Source: Candidatus Falkowbacteria bacterium GW2011_GWF2_43_32 (GTDB taxonomy: Bacteria; Patescibacteriota; Patescibacteriia; Patescibacteriales; UBA12465). From it: a stretch of 64,000 nt of DNA. Of the stretch, positions 10,144-40,126 are shown in pieces. Within the stretch, counting starts at the first letter, position 1, and every line of letters begins with the position of its first letter. The DNA lies in assembly GCA_000999715.1 (NCBI GenBank), contig LCGL01000001.1, positions 259,139 to 323,138 of the forward strand, given 5' to 3'. The notes under the pieces were generated by a model. It saw nothing but the letters and a program-made list of their open reading frames with translations. It was not told the DNA's origin and made no database searches. Both the position numbers and the translations under genes were made by a program.

Positions 10144-12117
10144 TTAAACTTTATCGACAATTTTCTCTTCGCGATAAACTTCTAAAATATCGCCGACGGC
10201 CACAACCGGTTTTCCTTCATATTTGATTCCCGCTTCTTCGTCTTGATCAACCTGATCGACGTCCTGTTTACCGGACTGCAGACGGGTTAATTTGCCGGAA
10301 ACGACGAAATCGGTGCCGCGTTTCACGTCAATCAAACTGTCATTCTTAATGGCGCCGTCCAGTACTTTGCCGCCGATAATCTGACTGTTCGCTTCCGTGC
10401 GGAATACGGCCAAAACCTTGAGACGACCCAGTTCCACGCGATTGATTTCCGGTTTGATAAGTAACTGCATTTCCTCCTTGACGAATTTGATGAGATCGTA
10501 AATAACGGAAAAAGTTTTAACCGTCACTTGTCTTTCTCGCACCAAAGTTTCAATCGTCGGCGATATGCGAACATTAAAACCGAGAATCTTGGCGCCGGCA
10601 TCTTCGGCGCGTTTGACGTCGCCCTCCGTAATATAGCCCAAGCCTTTGCTGATTATTTTTACTTTGACCTTTTCGCCGTTCAATTTCAACAAAGACTCTT
10701 CAATCGCTTCCGCCGAACCGAGAAAATCGGTTTTAATGACCACATTGACTTTCGGCGTCCGATCTTCCGGACCGTCTTCCAATCCGGCCGGCAAAACATC
10801 GGCCGCTTGCGAACTGCTTTTGATTTTCTTGGTCTTCACTTTTTCTCCTTCACCGACATTCAAAATATCGCCGACCGCCGGAGAAATCTTCAATCCTAAA
10901 ATTTTCACGGGCACGGACGGTCCGGCCTGGCTCATTTCTTCTCCTTTATAATTTTTTAAAGCCTTAACCTTGCCATAAACGATGTCATTGAAACATAATT
11001 GATCGCCAACGCGCAAAGTGCCGTTTTGAACTAAAATTGTCGCCACCGGTCCGGCCGCTTTATCAACATTGGATTCCACGACCGTGCCGGCCGCCGCCGC
11101 TTCCGGATTAGCTTTCAAGCTCGCCGCTTCCGTATCGGCCACCAACAGCACCATGTCCAGCAATTCCTCTATCCCCGTGCCTTCCTTGGCGGAAACCGGC
11201 GCACAAATCGTTTTGCCGCCCCAATCTTCGGGGGTAATATTTAATTTTGAAGATAATTCTTGCTTAGTCTTATTGATATCCGCCGTCGGCTTATCAACCT
11301 TATTCATGGCCACGATAAAAGGAATTTTAGCCGCTTCAATAATACGAAAAGCTTCCACCGTCTGCGGCATCACACCGTCATCGGCGGCCACGACCAAAAT
11401 GGCGATATCGGCCACTTTGGCGCCGCGACTGCGCATCGCCGTAAAAGCTTCATGCCCGGGCGTATCGATAAAAGTAATGGTTCTTTCTTTACGAATAATC
11501 TGATAAGCGCCGATATGCTGGGTGATTCCGCCCGCTTCACCGGCGATAACATCAGTACTGCGGATAGAATCCAATAATTTCGTCTTACCATGATCAACGT
11601 GCCCCATAACAACAATTACCGGCGGACGCTCTTTCAAATCCGCAATCTGTTCTCCGGCCAAAATCGTTTCCAATTTTTTATTTTCCTTCTCATTTTCTTC
11701 TAATTTAACTTCGGCCGCCTGAACATCAAGATTCAGATTTTCTCCGATAATCGCCGCCGTATCAAAATCAATTTTTTCATTGATGGAGGTAAAAACTCCG
11801 TTTTTCATCAATTCCGCCAAAACGCGGTTAACCGGAATCCCGGCCAATTCGGCATAGGCGCGTACGCTGATGACTTTCGGCACGGCAATGGTTCTTTTCT
11901 CTTTCGGCAGAACCTCATCCTGTTTCTTGATTTCCGCGGCCAGCTTTTTTTGCTCCCATTGGCGACGCAAAAACGGCCAATCTTTAATAATTTTTTTGGC
12001 GGTATTGTTATCCACTTTAATCGCTTTTTGTCCGATCGCAAATCCGAGCTCCGGCAACAAATCGCGCAATTCCTGCGGATTGATTCTTAAAATTCTGGCT
12101 AGTTCGGTAATATTCAT
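10144..12117 (-). CDS. infB: translation initiation factor IF-2
   Basis: G-domain motifs GHVDHGKT, DTPGH and NKVD, plus IF-2 C-terminal domains. Confidence 0.95.
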   Translation of the reverse strand: MNITELARILRINPQELRDLLPELGFAIGQKAIKVDNNTAKKIIKDWPFLRRQWEQKKLAAEIKKQDEVLPKEKRTIAVPKVISVRAYAELAGIPVNRVLAELMKNGVFTSINEKIDFDTAAIIGENLNLDVQAAEVKLEENEKENKKLETILAGEQIADLKERPPVIVVMGHVDHGKTKLLDSIRSTDVIAGEAGGITQHIGAYQIIRKERTITFIDTPGHEAFTAMRSRGAKVADIAILVVAADDGVMPQTVEAFRIIEAAKIPFIVAMNKVDKPTADINKTKQELSSKLNITPEDWGGKTICAPVSAKEGTGIEELLDMVLLVADTEAASLKANPEAAAAGTVVESNVDKAAGPVATILVQNGTLRVGDQLCFNDIVYGKVKALKNYKGEEMSQAGPSVPVKILGLKISPAVGDILNVGEGEKVKTKKIKSSSQAADVLPAGLEDGPEDRTPKVNVVIKTDFLGSAEAIEESLLKLNGEKVKVKIISKGLGYITEGDVKRAEDAGAKILGFNVRISPTIETLVRERQVTVKTFSVIYDLIKFVKEEMQLLIKPEINRVELGRLKVLAVFRTEANSQIIGGKVLDGAIKNDSLIDVKRGTDFVVSGKLTRLQSGKQDVDQVDQDEEAGIKYEGKPVVAVGDILEVYREEKIVDKV

Positions 12118-12515
12118 AAATTTTATCTATTTTTTAATATTACTTTAATTTTTGAGTTTAGTCAACCAATAATTTCATACTATCTTATTTAATTTCTGTC
12201 AATATTTTCAAATCCAAATATTAATGCTAAGCTAAAGAAGTAAATTTTATAATTTATTAATCTAAAGTCTGTTTTTAGGGATTATTAGAGAAATTAACTG
12301 CCGCCTCGCCGTCAACTGACGAACTGTCCAGAAATTTATTTTTGAGCGCACAAATCTATGCTTTCCTTGGTTTTTCACTCTAGCTTAACTACAAAAAATC
12401 AAAAATCCACTAGCCCCTCTCTTAAATAAATCGCCTCTGAGGCGTACGGTTATTATTTTTCAAAATTTAATAGTTCCCTTGCCACCCCCAATCCCCAAAG
12501 ACAGGCTCCCTTAAT

Positions 12516-14039
12516 ATGGAATACCTAAACTATGTCTTGTATGTCGTCCTGGCCGCGGGTGGTTTTTTTATTGGTTTTGTCGCTTACAAAAAGAGTGCCG
12601 GCAAAAAAATCTCCAGCGCCAGCGAACGAGCGGAAAAATTGATCAACGAAGCAAAAATCAAAGAAAAGGATTTATTGCTGAAAGCGCAGGATAAAGCCCT
12701 GCACATCATTGAAGAGTCCAAAAAAGAAGAATCGGTCCGACGCAACGAAATGAATAACTTGCAAAAAAGACTGGAACAACGGGAGACCGCTTTTTCTCAA
12801 AAACTTTTGGATTTGCAAGAAAAACAACAAAAACTCTACGACAAGGTCAACGAAGTCCAAGAAATCAAAGAAAAAATAAAAAGCGTCAAAGAGGAACAAG
12901 AGGCTAAGTTGGAAAAAATTTCCAATTTGACTCGAGATGAGGCCAAACAGATCCTGTTGAAAGACGTGGAAGAAAAAAGCGCCGAAGATTTGATGATTCG
13001 CATCAAAAAATTGGAAAACGAAGCCGAAGATAATATTAACGATAAAGCGAAGGACATGATGGCCTTGGCCATGCAACGCTTGGTCTCCGGTTATACGGTG
13101 GAGTTGACGACCACCACGGTCGATTTGCCCAATGACGAAATGAAAGGACGTATTATCGGTCGCGAAGGTCGCAACATTAAAGCGATTGAACAAATGACCG
13201 GAGTGGAAATTATCGTTGACGATATGCCTAACGCCATCACCGTTTCCGGCTTCTCTTTGATTCGCCGCCATATCGCCAAAAAAACTTTGGATTATTTGAT
13301 AAAAGACGGACGCATCCATCCGACCAAGATTGAAGAAGCGGTGGAGAATGCCAAAAAAGATATTTCTTTGGACATCAAAAAAGCCGGCGAAGAAGCGATG
13401 TATGAAGTCGGCGTCACCGGTTTTGACCCGAAATTGGTGCAAATTTTAGGACGTCTAAAATACCGCACCAGTTACGGCCAAAACGCTTTGCGCCATTCCA
13501 TTGAAGTCGCTCATCTGGCCGCCATGTTGGCCGAAGAATTGGGCGCGGACGTCACTCTGGCCAAAAAAGGCGGTCTCTTGCACGACATCGGCAAAGCGGT
13601 TGATCATGAAGTCCAAGGCAATCATACCGAAATCGGTCGCGATATCGCCAAAAAATTCAATTTGCCGCCGGAAATAATCGCGCCGATCGCCACGCATCAC
13701 GATGACCAGCCGGCTTCCTTGATTTCCGTTATCGTTAAAGTTGCCGACGCCATTTCTTCCGCTCGTCCCGGAGCGCGCAAAGACAGCTATGAAAACTACT
13801 TACAGCGCCTGGAAGAGCTGGAAAAGATCGCTTTAACCTTTGAAGGCGTGGAAAAAACCTACGCCATCCAGGCCGGACGCGAAATCAGAGTCTTTGTCCA
13901 ACCGGAAGCGATTAACGATCTGCAGACTCATAATTTGGCTAGAGATATTGCAAAAAAGATAGAAAATGAGTTAAAATACCCAGGAGAGATAAAAGTCAAC
14001 GTTATCCGGGAAATGCGGGTAACCGAATACGCCCGTTAA
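12516..14039 (+). CDS. rny: ribonuclease Y
   Basis: N-terminal TM helix, coiled coil, KH domain (GRIIGREGRNIKAIE) and HD domain (LLHDIGKA ... HH). Confidence 0.95.
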   Translation: MEYLNYVLYVVLAAGGFFIGFVAYKKSAGKKISSASERAEKLINEAKIKEKDLLLKAQDKALHIIEESKKEESVRRNEMNNLQKRLEQRETAFSQKLLDLQEKQQKLYDKVNEVQEIKEKIKSVKEEQEAKLEKISNLTRDEAKQILLKDVEEKSAEDLMIRIKKLENEAEDNINDKAKDMMALAMQRLVSGYTVELTTTTVDLPNDEMKGRIIGREGRNIKAIEQMTGVEIIVDDMPNAITVSGFSLIRRHIAKKTLDYLIKDGRIHPTKIEEAVENAKKDISLDIKKAGEEAMYEVGVTGFDPKLVQILGRLKYRTSYGQNALRHSIEVAHLAAMLAEELGADVTLAKKGGLLHDIGKAVDHEVQGNHTEIGRDIAKKFNLPPEIIAPIATHHDDQPASLISVIVKVADAISSARPGARKDSYENYLQRLEELEKIALTFEGVEKTYAIQAGREIRVFVQPEAINDLQTHNLARDIAKKIENELKYPGEIKVNVIREMRVTEYAR

Positions 14040-36267: not shown

Positions 36268-36295
36268 AAAAAGACGAGATGGTTCTCGTCTTTTT
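36268..36295. terminator. bidirectional terminator
   Basis: AAAAAGACGAG-ATGGTT-CTCGTCTTTTT. Confidence 0.6.
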
Positions 36296-36301
36296 GTTGG
36301 T

Positions 36302-36334
36302 GAGGTCTTGGCGCGGGGTGGTTATGAATTTGAG
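36302..36334. repeat. degenerate third copy of the 33-nt island repeat
   Basis: GAGGTCTTGGCGCGGGGTGGTTATGAATTTGAG. By my count it matches copy A at 21 of 33 positions ungapped, and at 12 of the last 15. Confidence 0.3.
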
Positions 36335-36340
36335 GAAATG

Positions 36341-36366
36341 AAAAAGCCCTTAAAAAATAAGGGCTT
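36341..36366 (-). terminator. terminator overlapping the stop of the 389-aa gene
   Basis: Stem AAGCCCTT/AAGGGCTT. On the minus strand it is followed by UUUCAUUU. Confidence 0.5.
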
Positions 36367-37534
36367 ACTGCTTATTCATAACTAGTTTAATGTTCTTTAT
36401 AACATTATCGACTTCCTCAACTTGCAAATGAGTTAATGTGCGCTCTAAGAACTCATCACCACCATCGAAGTAATCATTTAAAGAAAAAGCATGTATTCCT
36501 TGCAAGGGCAGACATGAAGTTAGTAAAGTTCTACGTAAATAATTATAAAAATTATCGCCTTTTAATAAATCAAAAAGAAAAATACTTCTTTTGATTTTTT
36601 CCCTCATCTCCACGGTAAAATCCCGCCAACCATTATAATCCTCTTCGGCCCAAACCGTCAGCTGAAGACTGTCTAATAGTAAATTTAAAGAAAGAAGATT
36701 GCCTTCTTGCGCGGCAGCGATAAAATCCAAAGCAACCAAATTACGCTTTCTTTTATCTTCCTTGTTAAGGCAGGCGTAAAGAGTATAAAGCTCGTGTTGG
36801 TGTTTTTTAACTAGCCGGCGAAACTCGCTTGTGCCTTTATAGAAATTTACTTCTTTGACTGCGCCCTTATACCTCCATTTGTCATGCCATTTTTTGTCTA
36901 GCCTGGAAATCACTTGATCCCAATCGTTCTTAAAAACAATCCCTATCTGCTTATCCAGGGAACCGTTGTGCCTCTCAATCCAATTAGGAGAAAAAAAGGG
37001 CGGATTTTCCTTTTCTAAAAGATCAGAAAGCCTCTTTATTATCTTATCCTTATCTCCTCCATATTTAATCAGGCGGCGATAAGAGAATTTTTGGATATCA
37101 AATTTATCAAAAACGAATTTCCAATCAATTCCATTATCGGCATTCCGAAAACCCCGTTTAATCGATAAATATAGGGCGTAAGAATTATTTCTAATCCATT
37201 GTGGCATCGGTTTAGAGATTTTCTTTTCTTTCAAAAGATTCGCTAAACGGCTAAACTCTTCTTCATTTAAAAAGTATAAAATTTCTTTCCGAACTTCACG
37301 ACAAATAATATCTGCCTCTTCTTTATACTCAGAGAATGGGGCGAGCGCCTCTTTTACTTTTAAGTTGCACCACTTAGCAATATGACAAGGGTTAGGCTTC
37401 GTAGGAAGCGTAGATAAAATGGAATTAATTATTTTCCATTTTTTTTGATTAAGTACTATTCCCTCTTTAGCGGCCGCTTTAATAATACAACGACTGACAA
37501 AATCAGGCGATAAAGCTTTTCCGGTTCTACTCAT
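36365..37534 (-). CDS. hypothetical protein (389 aa), island gene 3
   Basis: Long AT-rich ORF with no motif I can assign. Confidence 0.5.
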   Translation of the reverse strand: MSRTGKALSPDFVSRCIIKAAAKEGIVLNQKKWKIINSILSTLPTKPNPCHIAKWCNLKVKEALAPFSEYKEEADIICREVRKEILYFLNEEEFSRLANLLKEKKISKPMPQWIRNNSYALYLSIKRGFRNADNGIDWKFVFDKFDIQKFSYRRLIKYGGDKDKIIKRLSDLLEKENPPFFSPNWIERHNGSLDKQIGIVFKNDWDQVISRLDKKWHDKWRYKGAVKEVNFYKGTSEFRRLVKKHQHELYTLYACLNKEDKRKRNLVALDFIAAAQEGNLLSLNLLLDSLQLTVWAEEDYNGWRDFTVEMREKIKRSIFLFDLLKGDNFYNYLRRTLLTSCLPLQGIHAFSLNDYFDGGDEFLERTLTHLQVEEVDNVIKNIKLVMNKQ

Positions 37535-37657
37535 GATATCTAGTTTTAGTTGTTTATATTTTTAAAGTTCTATTTTTACTTAATAGAACAAAATAACATA
37601 TATATCCATAAATATCAAATGATTTATAAGCCCCCGAAAACGTATTCTTAGAGTACC

Positions 37658-37687
37658 AAAAAATGCCCTAAAGTTAAGGCATTTTTT
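37658..37687. terminator. bidirectional terminator downstream of the protease gene
   Basis: AAAAAATGCC-CTAAAGTTAA-GGCATTTTTT. Confidence 0.6.
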
Positions 37688-37691
37688 ATTG

Positions 37692-37724
37692 GAGCTCCTT
37701 TTGCAGTTTGGTTATAAATTCAAT
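37692..37724. repeat. 33-nt island repeat, copy B
   Basis: GAGCTCCTTTTGCAGTTTGGTTATAAATTCAAT, identical to copy A at 31 of 33 positions. Confidence 0.75.
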
Positions 37725-37766
37725 AAAATTTAAAAAATATATTTTTCCAAAATAGCTATCTTTAAA

Positions 37767-38606
37767 CTACCTCTTATAACCTATTAATTCAAAAACTTTA
37801 TCCATTGCAACAACTACTGAATATCCTGAATTTTCAAATTCTGTGTTAACTAGCCTGTTTCTTGTATTAACCCATTTTTGGACGAATGGGATAAATTGAG
37901 ACACAAGCCCTATTATTTTATAATGCAACCCATTAAGACCATCCTGCTCTACCTCCACTACCGGACCACCACTATTTCCGTAATAAACTGGGCAATCAAT
38001 GATAATGGTGCCATGATTTTTATACACGTTCGCCACTATTCCTTTCCTTAATAGAGGTTTATTGTAATCAAATTGTGGAGAATCAGCCATTCCTAAGGAA
38101 GTTGGATAGCCAGACAAAAAAACATTATTAGAAATTAATACCTCTTCTAAAAGTTTAACCTTTCCAGCATCTACTTGAATCATCGTTGTCTTTCCGGAAA
38201 CTTTTTTTGTTACCCCACTATTGGCTATTAACTTGTACCCTTCGCCCGTCTCCGTTTTTTCCAGCTCTCCCATCTCAATCGCAGCAACATCGGAGTTTGG
38301 GTGTGCAATCGGCGCAAGCACTCTCAAATCGACACCATAAACATGGACGCTATCATCATTGATATCTCTAGCAGGAATTATCAAATCAATATTGCTCCCT
38401 CGTATTTTCTTATCATCATCAAATAAAACGTGCTTTGCTGTGATTAAAAATACTTTTTTGTCTGCTCGTAACAAAAACCCTGACCCCTGACTGCCTGTAT
38501 CAAATTTAATTAGTAACGGATAAGCTAAATTGTCTTCTGGTATTGCTCTCATATAATTCAACAAAATAAAGTCTACATATTTATTATACCTTCTTAAAGC
38601 AAACAA
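37767..38606 (-). CDS. trypsin-fold (chymotrypsin-like, Trypsin_2-type) serine protease, island gene 2
   Basis: Catalytic contexts FLITAKHVLF (His), NSDVAAIEM (Asp) and YYGNSGGPVV (Ser). There is no signal peptide or PDZ domain. The TTG at 38606 lies in the U tract of the upstream terminator, so the ATG at 38552 (MRAIPEDN) is a plausible true start. Confidence 0.8.
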   Translation of the reverse strand: MFALRRYNKYVDFILLNYMRAIPEDNLAYPLLIKFDTGSQGSGFLLRADKKVFLITAKHVLFDDDKKIRGSNIDLIIPARDINDDSVHVYGVDLRVLAPIAHPNSDVAAIEMGELEKTETGEGYKLIANSGVTKKVSGKTTMIQVDAGKVKLLEEVLISNNVFLSGYPTSLGMADSPQFDYNKPLLRKGIVANVYKNHGTIIIDCPVYYGNSGGPVVEVEQDGLNGLHYKIIGLVSQFIPFVQKWVNTRNRLVNTEFENSGYSVVVAMDKVFELIGYKR

Positions 38607-38625
38607 AAACAGCCCTTTCGGACTG
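38601..38625 (-). terminator. intrinsic terminator downstream of the ATPase gene
   Basis: The minus strand reads CAGUCC-GAAA-GGGCUG followed by UUUUUGUUU. The G-U pair forms only on the minus-strand RNA. Confidence 0.55.
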
Positions 38626-38637
38626 TCTCTGTTTCGT

Positions 38638-38670
38638 GAGCTCCTTTTGGAGTTTGGTTATAAATTTAAT
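38638..38670. repeat. 33-nt island repeat, copy A
   Basis: GAGCTCCTTTTGGAGTTTGGTTATAAATTTAAT, abutting the ATPase stop codon. Confidence 0.75.
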
Positions 38671-39965
38671 TAATGTGCCAACTCAATGCCTTCTGGAACA
38701 TCAAAGGATTCAAAAATCTCTTGTAAGTCAGCATTTCTAATAAAAAAATAAAACGTAGAATCAATTATCTTTAATGTCCTAATACTTTTATCATAGTCAA
38801 ATAAGGGAGGAACAATTCCTCTTTTAATCTGTGATGCGACAATATTATGTAAAAAATTACTCATATCAGATGGCCTTACGTCATTGGGTCGATGATGAAA
38901 TGATTTTATGCCTGTTTGTATCTCCACTCTCTTAAACCCAGCTACCATCGCATCAAAATCTTGAACAAAAAGGAATTTAATAAAGTAATAAGGGAGAAAG
39001 AGTTGTGTATCTGCGGATCCTCCGCCACGTTGCTCAATAAAAGTTTCAACGCTTCTTAAATGCCTCCCAGAATAATCTTGCCATTTTTTCTCTTTTGCTT
39101 TCCTAAGATTATCAAAACCTAATATAACTTTATCAGCGCCGGTATTCTCGACGCCAGCGGCTAGACAAACTTCTTTGCAAAGTTCCTGAAAAACACCCAC
39201 ACTATCAAAAGATAAATTTACCAGCTCTTCAAATATTTCATCAAATCGAACATTTAGCAACGGGCTACCGCTTTCTATAATTTTTCTAAAATCTTCCTTT
39301 GACCATGGCTCAACCGGTATCTCTATCAACCTATCTTGGAGATCTCCGTTAAATTGAGCTAATCTATTTTTTTCTCTCCATATGCCTAAAATAATAAATA
39401 GAATATTATTATCTTCAAAAACTCTTAAATGATGCGCTAACTGTTTTTGCACTTCCTCTGGTAAATAATGAAAATTTTCTAAAATAATTCTTTTCTTAAA
39501 GCCAATTTTTATTAATATTTCACAAATATCCTGCGGCAATTCTAAATTATACTCAACCGTGCTATATTTTATCTCTTCTGAACTGGTTCCCGCTAACTCT
39601 GACCCAACTTTTGCATCGCCTGAAAAAAATGGTATTAATACCTTTGCTCTTACTTCTCCGGATATGCCGCCTTTTGTTTCCTCTCTCAAAGATTTCTCAA
39701 TTTCAAATTTGATATTTAACTGACGCAAAATAGATCTATATATATCAATAGGTGTAGTTTCCGGAGCACAATTTATTCTGACAAATTCTGTTTCAGCTAA
39801 ATGTCTATTAGTCAAAGCTGATTTCCCTTGCTTTGAGGAACCGAAAACTATAATGTGTTTTCTGGTTTCTATAGCTCTAAGAAATAATAAATCGACACTT
39901 TCTCTTTCTATATAGCTCTTTATGTCACTATTTGAAACGCCAAACACTTCAATGGTTTTGCTCAT
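38670..39965 (-). CDS. orphan P-loop NTPase (AAA/Arch_ATPase-like) with large unassigned C-terminal region, island gene 1
   Basis: Walker A VFGSSKQGKSAL (residues about 40-50) and Walker-B-like KRIILENFHYLPEE (about 165-178). The remaining 250 or so aa are unrecognised. Confidence 0.7.
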   Translation of the reverse strand: MSKTIEVFGVSNSDIKSYIERESVDLLFLRAIETRKHIIVFGSSKQGKSALTNRHLAETEFVRINCAPETTPIDIYRSILRQLNIKFEIEKSLREETKGGISGEVRAKVLIPFFSGDAKVGSELAGTSSEEIKYSTVEYNLELPQDICEILIKIGFKKRIILENFHYLPEEVQKQLAHHLRVFEDNNILFIILGIWREKNRLAQFNGDLQDRLIEIPVEPWSKEDFRKIIESGSPLLNVRFDEIFEELVNLSFDSVGVFQELCKEVCLAAGVENTGADKVILGFDNLRKAKEKKWQDYSGRHLRSVETFIEQRGGGSADTQLFLPYYFIKFLFVQDFDAMVAGFKRVEIQTGIKSFHHRPNDVRPSDMSNFLHNIVASQIKRGIVPPLFDYDKSIRTLKIIDSTFYFFIRNADLQEIFESFDVPEGIELAH

Positions 39966-39996
39966 AAATAATTTTTTTAGTTAAATATTGTATAAC

Positions 39997-40046
39997 AAAA
40001 ACCCCCATTACGAGGGTTTCTGTAATCTGGGGGTTTATAAACCCCC
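39997..40046 (-). promoter_or_regulatory. mutually exclusive hairpins (terminator/anti-terminator-like) between tRNA-Gly and the island ATPase gene
   Basis: The minus-strand RNA reads GGGGGUUU(1)-AU-AAACCCCC(2)-AG-AUUAC-loop-GUAAU-GGGGGUUUUUGUU(3). Segment 2 can pair with 1, or with 3. The 2:3 pairing forms a terminator with a U tract. Confidence 0.45.
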
Positions 40047-40051
40047 GTAAA

Positions 40052-40126
40052 TGGAGCGGGTAACGGGAATCGAACCCGTCTCTCGACCTTGGCAAGGTCG
40101 CATAATAACCACTATACGATACCCGC
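40052..40126 (-). tRNA. tRNA-Gly (GCC)
   Basis: The reverse complement is GCGGGTATCGTATAGTGGTTATTATGCGACCTTGCCAAGGTCGAGAGACGGGTTCGATTCCCGTTACCCGCTCCA. It folds as a canonical cloverleaf. CCA is encoded. Confidence 0.9.

Follow-up and report, generated by a model that had tools for sequence, protein, structure and literature searches.

A conserved 30-nt repeat as the putative 3' boundary of small gene cassettes stacked behind tRNA-Gly in Falkowbacteria-like Patescibacteria

Introduction

Patescibacteria (Candidate Phyla Radiation, CPR) have tiny genomes that are thought to be poor in classical mobile elements, and to our knowledge the way in which they acquire accessory and defense genes is largely unknown. 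The locus described here lies in a 64,000-nt stretch of Candidatus Falkowbacteria bacterium GW2011_GWF2_43_32 (contig LCGL01000001.1, positions 259,139 to 323,138), which is called the window throughout. On its minus strand, a 33-nt repeat (the motif) follows each gene of a small low-G+C island downstream of tRNA-Gly(GCC), and the question is what this repeat does. A first-pass annotation listed three candidates: a cassette boundary or recombination site, a protein or small RNA (sRNA) binding site in the 3' untranslated region (3'-UTR), and an antisense promoter remnant.

We consider it moderately probable that small mobile gene cassettes lacking an integrase recombine at the repeat, which would be their att-like site at the 3' end. 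The role of the motif as a boundary is well supported by comparison of related genomes, and we infer the recombination chemistry and the enzyme. Full-text literature searches yielded no matching description of such a cassette system, including in Patescibacteria.

Cassette arrays downstream of tRNA-Gly

The same locus was taken from 80 GTDB genomes by anchoring on SmpB (best SmpB identity, 84%), and one metagenome scan with a degenerate pattern added 22 loci; a profile was used for the total. Labels such as L008 and L014 denote the relative loci fetched in this way. On the gene strand, the 30-nt core of the motif is AAATTTATAACCAAACTSCAAAAGGAGCTC. A search of related genomes, which the first-pass annotation had recommended, recovered 57 copies in 27 loci (26 contigs). 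These loci belong to related Falkowbacteria-like Patescibacteria, with up to 5-6 copies per array and every copy within a locus on one strand. Four of the nearest genomes (L010, L013, L014, and L015) have the motif at 24-31 of 33 positions, always downstream of tRNA-Gly and on the tRNA strand, in arrays of 1-5 copies.

The order tmRNA-tRNALeu-tRNAGly is conserved among the fetched loci, and the array lies directly 3' of tRNA-Gly(GCC), on the same strand, in all 14 loci with the tRNA in view. There are two upstream contexts, tmRNA-tRNALeu-tRNAGly and tRNAAsp-tRNAGly (L099, L104). Because the arrangement also holds in L099 and L104 behind tRNA-Asp, the anchor of the array is tRNA-Gly itself. The recurrence of tRNA-Gly-anchored arrays in many related genomes strongly supports the first of the three candidates, a cassette boundary or recombination site.

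The repeat could also have been a ubiquitous genome-wide element. Within the 64-kb window it is confined to the island, and the rest of the 1.2 Mb of related loci lacks it away from the downstream side of tRNA-Gly. A stricter form of the motif had no match in viral contigs, GenBank phages, or PLSDB plasmids; seven viral-contig matches to a degenerate pattern spanning the three window copies are chance matches in coding regions (...LGY(E/K)F...). A dispersed repeat (repetitive extragenic palindrome [REP]- or bacterial interspersed mosaic element [BIME]-like, or an uptake sequence) was rejected because the motif is confined, in the window and in these loci, to arrays behind tRNA-Gly.

Anatomy of the motif and the cassettes

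Among 52 non-identical copies, positions -30 to -1 carry high information content, which is lost abruptly at +1, just past ...GAGCTC; this position is referred to as the junction. The chief polymorphism is G or C at -13, and its would-be pairing partner is invariant. The 48 nt past the junction have a median folding energy of -14.7 kcal/mol, compared to -5.7 kcal/mol in random segments from the same loci, and 62% of these segments fall below the random 5th percentile. Simple terminator scans erred on one side or the other, by passing 48% of random positions or by being too strict, and the energy comparison is the usable figure. By eye, nearly all post-junction segments are hairpins with T-runs, and they form a few recurring module families. 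A TATAAT box is found between +25 and +130 at 21 of 53 junctions (random, 10%), and an extended -10 box at 15 of 53 (random, 3.5%).

Spacing from junction to junction ranges from 274 to 4559 nt, with a median of about 0.9 kb, and 31 of 45 cassettes contain one open reading frame (ORF). Cassette ORFs are mostly co-oriented (58 of 68); the other 10 are reversed, and five cassettes have reversed genes only. The motif shares the orientation of the tRNA and the array in every case, cassettes with reversed cargo included. The 86 array ORFs match 50 Pfam families, each present in at most two ORFs. Cargo includes transporters, methyltransferases, GNAT, NUDIX, isochorismatase, and Peptidase_S51 proteins, together with defense-type proteins such as OLD/AriA/PtuA-like ATPases, MADS components, and AbiLi. 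As read here, a cassette consists of a 5' terminator module (often with a -10 box), cargo (usually one gene), and the motif at its 3' end.

Evidence for the junction as a recombination boundary

The same families of terminator modules follow motif copies, the true end of tRNA-Gly, and partial tRNA-Gly copies. The module directly behind tRNA-Gly in the window (the G module) follows motif copies rather than the tRNA in L015, L103, and L106, with 88-94% identity, and the homology begins at the G of GCTC. Conversely, the module that follows the first motif copy in the window (module A) is of a type found directly behind tRNA-Gly in L008, L014, and L018. The motif together with module A is 94-97% identical to L015 and L089, where core genes are about 70% identical. 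Overall, motif plus module is 85-97% identical between genomes, compared to 66-73% for the SmpB-trigger factor region.

Cassettes also occur in different surroundings. L106 (2299-2956) and L108 share a homologous cassette, the homology running from the first base past GCTC through the motif; to the left of the cassette lies a motif in L106, whereas L108 has a 17-nt tRNA-Gly copy there. The extent of this homology therefore defines the unit as module, cargo, and motif. Several arrays contain homologous cassettes at different positions with different neighbors, and homology starting right past GCTC in such cases is further support for a cassette boundary. Exchange at motif copies is seen between genomes that are otherwise 99% identical. 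L014 and L107 are 97-99% identical on both sides of their variable cassettes; in the interval bounded by two motif copies, a single cassette of 487 nt in L014 corresponds to two unrelated cassettes of 1002 and 526 nt in L107.

The similarity between the motif and tRNA-Gly is limited. Aligned with the last 21 nt of tRNA-Gly, the motif matches at 8 of 21 positions, four of which are GCTC; mapped on tRNA positions, the discriminator U and two acceptor pairs of the motif fit tRNA-Gly. Descent from a diverged tRNA 3' half was rejected: the T-arm does not fit, there is no G53-C61 pair, and there is no TTC loop.

Proposed mechanism and the search for a recombinase

We propose that the arrays grow directly behind tRNA-Gly(GCC), by head-to-tail accumulation of cassettes that share one orientation. 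The motif would be the binding and crossover site (att-like) of a putative site-specific recombinase supplied in trans, which would join the GCTC of the motif to the GCTC of tRNA-Gly or to that of another motif. A relative of the tyrosine integrases that sister genomes carry at the same tRNA-Gly would be the likeliest enzyme; a tyrosine recombinase acting in trans is suggested because the hotspot and the GCTC-plus-module side of the sites are shared. With a terminator at its 5' end, each cassette would be insulated, and tRNA-Gly would still be properly terminated whenever a new cassette is inserted.

A broader proposal, which we make tentatively and rate at somewhat less than an even chance, is that these arrays are an integron-like cassette platform in Patescibacteria that is built differently from integrons. 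In such a platform the 3' end of tRNA-Gly(GCC) may take the attI role, and a linear, non-palindromic 30-bp site the attC role. Cassettes would carry their own terminator and promoter, and a recombinase encoded elsewhere would insert and excise single-gene cassettes. Many of the cassettes would be candidate anti-phage genes.

Integrases are common at this tRNA gene in relatives. In many sister genomes, integrases of about 390 aa (Phage_integrase plus SAM_3), often with an HTH_17 Xis-like partner, are convergent to the same tRNA-Gly. The elements that carry them are flanked by direct copies of the tRNA-Gly 3' end (17-25 nt, from the T-loop to GCTC plus 1-4 nt). On this sequence evidence, the same tRNA-Gly is the attachment site of classical integrase-bearing elements in sister genomes. 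In L131, L132, and L133, an identical integrase (P0003) lies beside tRNA-Gly genes that share their sequence beginning with the T-loop but differ ahead of it, which is consistent with the classical elements crossing over within or past the T-loop.

Contact between integrases and the motif is sparse. The integrase homologues looked up (P0001, P0003, P0007, P0009, P0011, P0093, P0100, and P0118) have no motif nearby, and the only contact is an integrase C-terminal remnant of 48-63 aa located 65 nt from a motif in L089. The local integrase family was set aside as an enzyme directly linked to the motif, though a link may exist. Among the array ORFs, the sole recombinase-like genes are copies of the IS200 transposase TnpA, which are considered below.

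Several other features of this tRNA-Gly site were observed. An inovirus-like prophage occupies it in a patescibacterial genome (L119:2700-11116 and L120), with genes for Zot, a REP_ORF2-G2P replication initiator, a LexA/S24-type repressor, and an integrase; restriction-modification, Vsr, and GmrSD genes lie behind the prophage. A 140-175 nt element, rich in G+C and closed by a long stem, begins GGGAATCGAAC..., ends in a 17-21 nt copy of the tRNA-Gly 3' end, and lies just past tRNA-Gly and its terminator. It was located at L108:3839-3993, L010:11108, L012:11103, L020:11113, L021:5897, L026:1464, L107:176, and L109:7345, and also at the end of the small contig L124, abutting an integrase gene. 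No Rfam family matches this element, which may be the attP arm of integrase-bearing elements left as a cargo-less attL-attR remnant.

Between tRNA-Leu and tRNA-Gly, some genomes have a 220-aa ORF in which only an N-terminal HTH_23 domain was recognized (L090:7675-8337, minus strand; L108:3054-3722, plus strand; L131:11288-11950, minus strand); two copies share 38% identity. The ORF is possibly a homing-endonuclease-like or transposase-like gene. As the cassette enzyme it was rejected, being present in only two motif loci and lacking a recombinase domain.

Alternative explanations

Several observations weigh against a dedicated site-specific recombinase acting at the motif. No recombinase tied to the motif was found in the window or in the motif arrays. 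The integrase-bearing elements at the same tRNA are bounded by copies of the tRNA-Gly 3' end rather than by the motif, and the motif occurs within 10 kb in none of about 20 integrase-bearing loci. The sole finely mapped breakpoint (L014/L107) is inside the motif and has a 7-nt duplication, and it looks like a homology-driven or illegitimate exchange rather than a clean site-specific event. The motif and the tRNA share only GCTC (at times GCTCCA or GCTCAC). The motif has no dyad symmetry, which is unusual for the core site of a tyrosine recombinase. A circular form of a cassette was not found among short contigs, although assembled contigs are a poor place to look for one. The pattern and the profile were derived from the motif itself, so that diverged variants are under-sampled.

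The strongest rival is that the motif serves as a portable homology anchor. Cassettes would be exchanged by DNA uptake and RecA-type recombination with no dedicated recombinase, the homologous flanks being tRNA-Gly, the 30-nt motif, and the 40-90 nt modules; the motif would persist since cassettes that keep it spread. We regard this as rather unlikely, yet as a serious rival because of the L014/L107 breakpoint, the small identity between motif and tRNA, and the missing dyad symmetry. A misaligned duplication of the kind seen at that breakpoint is what homology-driven exchange typically leaves. Over 40-90 nt the modules share 85-97% identity, and they occur repeatedly within arrays; the tRNA-Gly genes of these genomes share 90-99% identity, and the loci examined contain no recombinase linked to the motif. 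However, a homology anchor leaves unexplained why a sharp-edged 30-nt block is attached to unrelated genes, why conservation stops exactly at GCTC, and how tRNA end and motif, sharing 4-6 nt, are precisely swapped before the same module. In addition, 30 nt lies at the lower limit for efficient homologous recombination.

Action of the motif at the level of expression, as a 3'-UTR protein or sRNA site, an RNA-processing signal ahead of the terminator, or an operator or antisense promoter for joint regulation of the island genes, appears improbable. The motif always lies just upstream of a terminator and would be in the 3' end of the transcript; it carries an AAGGAG word, and its reverse strand has a weak promoter-like match. 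However, its orientation is fixed to the tRNA and the array rather than to the cargo, including the cassettes with only reversed genes. The first-pass annotation had described a CUCC/GGAG pairing as not conserved and had attributed conservation to primary sequence rather than structure. The covariation count bears this out: compensatory changes are absent, 42 of 54 distinct copies leave the third pair unpaired, and most copies have a disrupted CTSC/GGAG hairpin. With no covariation in the sole possible stem, the motif as an RNA structure was rejected, and it has no Rfam match. A 3'-UTR protein or sRNA site is thus disfavored by the orientation and by the lack of covariation. The antisense promoter is unsupported as a general function, the sigma-70 match being poor and unreported for the first window copy. 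Neither tRNA-Gly anchoring nor cassette turnover is explained by an expression element. A reverse-strand peptide (ELLLEFGYKFN*) was also rejected; its frame crosses the terminator and the upstream sequence is not conserved.

It is very unlikely that the motif is the right end of non-autonomous insertion sequences (IS) of the IS200/IS605 type, with insertion 3' of GCTC by a Y1 (HUH) transposase. TnpA genes (Y1_Tnp, E about 1e-33) do lie directly upstream of the motif once in L092 and twice in L100, cassettes start with hairpins, and the shared target would be only 4 nt, as is typical of IS200/IS605. However, L125-L130 carry TnpA genes that share 87-93% identity with these and are flanked by the same end hairpins on the left and right, in unrelated genomic places where the motif is absent and the IS ends about 10-12 nt past its right hairpin. 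The hairpins at the 5' ends of cassettes are perfect G+C-rich terminators of many unrelated sequences, not one TnpA-binding hairpin. IS200 TnpA as the cassette enzyme was rejected and is largely refuted, the same IS being found elsewhere without the motif. The IS itself (L092:2310-2915, two copies in L100, and L125-L130) encodes a TnpA of 135-143 aa and has end hairpins CCACCCGC..GCGGGTG (left) and CCACCGGC..GCCGGTGG (right). It is repeatedly found just past the T-run of an intrinsic terminator, and in the arrays it lies between the cargo terminator and the motif.

Equally remote is an integron cassette array without an integrase (CALIN) in which motif and hairpin form attC, a reading invited by single-gene, largely co-oriented cassettes that each end in a recombination-site-like element beside a hairpin and contain no integrase. 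A pair of R'' (RYYYAAC) and R' (GTTRRRY) starting in the motif was found in 0 of 53 junction regions; the motif reads TTATAAC, and a conserved GTTRRRY partner is absent. What is conserved here is the linear sequence of 30 nt; an attC site, in contrast, is an imperfect palindrome whose structure is conserved. The hairpins are perfect terminators with T-runs, cassettes often have their own promoter boxes, and the boundary is between motif and hairpin rather than at the 3' end of a palindrome. Apart from the L089 remnant, no tyrosine recombinase was found in the window or the arrays, and there is no IntI-like gene. The motif as an integron attC was rejected, since it failed every attC criterion tested.

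Comparison with known systems

With these alternatives weighed, the motif as a 3' recombination site of integrase-less cassettes can be compared to known systems. As in integrons, one platform site collects small, mostly single-gene, co-oriented, and functionally unrelated cassettes that each end in a site. The platform site (attI in integrons, the end of tRNA-Gly here) resembles the cassette site over 3-6 nt only, and the distal site is degraded. Unlike integron cassettes, which rely on the common Pc promoter, the cassettes here bring a terminator and often a promoter.

Tandem elements at tRNA and transfer-messenger RNA (tmRNA) genes are a second point of comparison. Dehalococcoides ssrA islands are bounded by ssrA or its 20-bp repeat (PMC3146451), Prochlorococcus tycheposon islands carry partial tRNAs (bioRxiv 10.1101/2020.12.28.424599), and accretion of cis-mobilizable elements (CIME) and integrative and mobilizable elements (IME) at tRNA/tmRNA genes has been reviewed (PMC5704250). 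The arrays resemble these systems in having a hotspot at a tRNA 3' end near tmRNA, stacking in one direction, many units without an integrase, and niche or defense cargo; the same tRNA-Gly also bears classical elements with integrase and Xis in sister genomes. However, the repeats of those elements copy the 3' end of the target gene (about 20-40 nt), whereas the repeat here is an unrelated 30-nt sequence. The units are also much smaller (median about 0.9 kb, usually one gene), and conservation of the motif extends to genomes that share only about 70% identity in their core genes.

Xer-dependent modules, such as pdif modules of Acinetobacter plasmids and integrative mobile elements exploiting Xer (IMEX) at dif, have a site of about 28-31 bp with 11-6-11 dyad symmetry and rely on the host enzyme. 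In these systems as in the arrays, a short simple site bounds modules that lack a recombinase and that may form arrays. The motif is similar in length to the Xer/dif site, with 30 nt and sharp edges, but no dyad symmetry is evident by inspection. Unlike Xer-dependent modules, all sites here are in direct orientation, and they are at a tRNA gene rather than at the replication terminus, with no GC-skew switch at the locus. No Xer homologue was found in the window. We file the system as a variant of site-specific cassette or island accretion outside integrons, tRNA islands, IS200, and dispersed repeats.

If the proposal is true, a cassette array behind tRNA-Gly would be a concrete mechanism of gene flux in Patescibacteria, with a 30-bp boundary site conserved across genera. 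The motif would be a marker with which accessory and defense genes could be harvested from metagenomes; among those bounded by it here are genes for a PDC-S59-like ATPase, a trypsin-like protease, and OLD/PtuA-like and MADS-like proteins. The recombinase, if found, would be a candidate gene-insertion tool for organisms that have so far been genetically intractable.

The island in the window

On the minus strand of the window, the gene order is trigger factor, SmpB, tmRNA (40651-40241), tRNA-Leu, tRNA-Gly(GCC), and then the island. The island is 3.75 kb in size, with 34.6% G+C compared to 44-47% in its flanks. The low-G+C stretch spans the end of tRNA-Gly (40053) to the outer end of the third motif copy (copy C, 36302), which closes the island exactly. 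Motif copies divide it into three units, and each of the three genes has its own terminator (Table 1). From this layout, the island appears to be a three-cassette array with a PDC-S59-like ATPase, a trypsin-like protease, and a 389-aa protein as cargo. Nucleotide relatives of these cargo genes are absent from every fetched locus.

Table 1. Coordinates of the tRNA-Gly anchor, the motif copies, and the predicted cassette components in the window.
Feature	Position	Strand	Evidence or remarks
tRNA-Gly(GCC)	40052..40126	(-)	ARAGORN, Rfam; cassette-array anchor
G module, 5' module of cassette 1	39996..40053	(-)	Sequence
Cassette 1 cargo, 431-aa AAA ATPase	38670..39965	(-)	Pfam AAA_22; PADLOC PDC-S59, E = 7.8e-66
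Motif copy A	38638..38670	(-)	3' end of cassette 1; 30-nt core 38638-38667
Terminator module A, 5' end of cassette 2	38601..38634	(-)	Fold -26.7 kcal/mol, z = -4.8
Cassette 2 cargo, trypsin-like serine protease	37767..38552	(-)	Pfam Trypsin_2; PADLOC PDC-S45, E = 1.5e-12
Motif copy B	37692..37724	(-)	3' end of cassette 2; core 37692-37721
Terminator module B, 5' end of cassette 3	37658..37687	(-)	Fold; homologous modules behind motifs in L015, L101, and L090
Cassette 3 cargo, 389-aa protein	36365..37534	(-)	Own terminator 36341-36366; in low-G+C region
Motif copy C	36302..36334	(-)	Probable decayed distal array end; core 36302-36331
Terminator hairpin past copy C	36268..36295	(-)	Fold -19.2 kcal/mol, z = -6.7

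Copies A and B are located where the first-pass annotation had placed them and are identical at 31 of 33 positions. On the minus strand, their unit reads ATTAAATTTATAACCAAACTCCAAAAGGAGCTC, followed by a strong hairpin and a T-run, and the terminator hairpins reported after both copies were recovered. The junction of copy A is 3' of the C at 38638. Copy A and the ATPase stop codon (38670-38672) have one base in common, and copy B begins 42 nt past the protease stop codon (37767-37769), close to the 45 nt estimated earlier. With up to three mismatches allowed, only these two copies were found in the window, and dinucleotide shuffles gave none. The adjacent coding sequence is not duplicated; the two copies are not part of a local duplication that takes in coding sequence.

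The degenerate copy C matches at 21 of 33 positions, as first counted. This figure alone is weak, since four other window positions have an equal score and about 1.4 are expected, and an nhmmer profile does not recover the copy. A position matrix was built from 45 copies, all from other genomes, and scored over 127,940 window positions. Copies A and B score 51.7 and 50.7 bits, and copy C ranks third with 10.7 bits (next best, 6.1). It sits where the third island gene ends, has the expected strand, and keeps register with the terminator that follows. Because of its matrix rank, strand, and register, copy C is best read as a decayed but genuine copy. The earlier statement that the terminator comes first at copy C was only half of the picture; hairpins are present on both sides, one before the copy and one after it, and the order of motif then terminator is therefore true of all three copies.

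At the upstream end of the array, the 3' end of tRNA-Gly reads ...ACCCGCTC(CA), with the junction past the C at 40054. The G module contains the hairpin GGGGGTTTATAAACCCCC (40029-40046) and a terminator hairpin with a T-run (39996-40019). The 431-aa ATPase of cassette 1 is a candidate single-gene defense system by its similarity to PDC-S59. In cassette 2, a TATAAT box lies at 38579-38590, past terminator module A. The longest ORF of the protease begins at a TTG at 38606, inside that terminator; the probable start is the ATG at 38552 (261 aa), with the TATAAT box ahead of it. Pfam, NCBIfam, and PADLOC gave no match for the 389-aa protein of cassette 3. Elsewhere in the window, three 1-kb bins without the motif (12001-13000, 24001-25000, and 27001-28000) have a G+C fraction of 0.37-0.38, compared to about 0.45, and may be other small islands.

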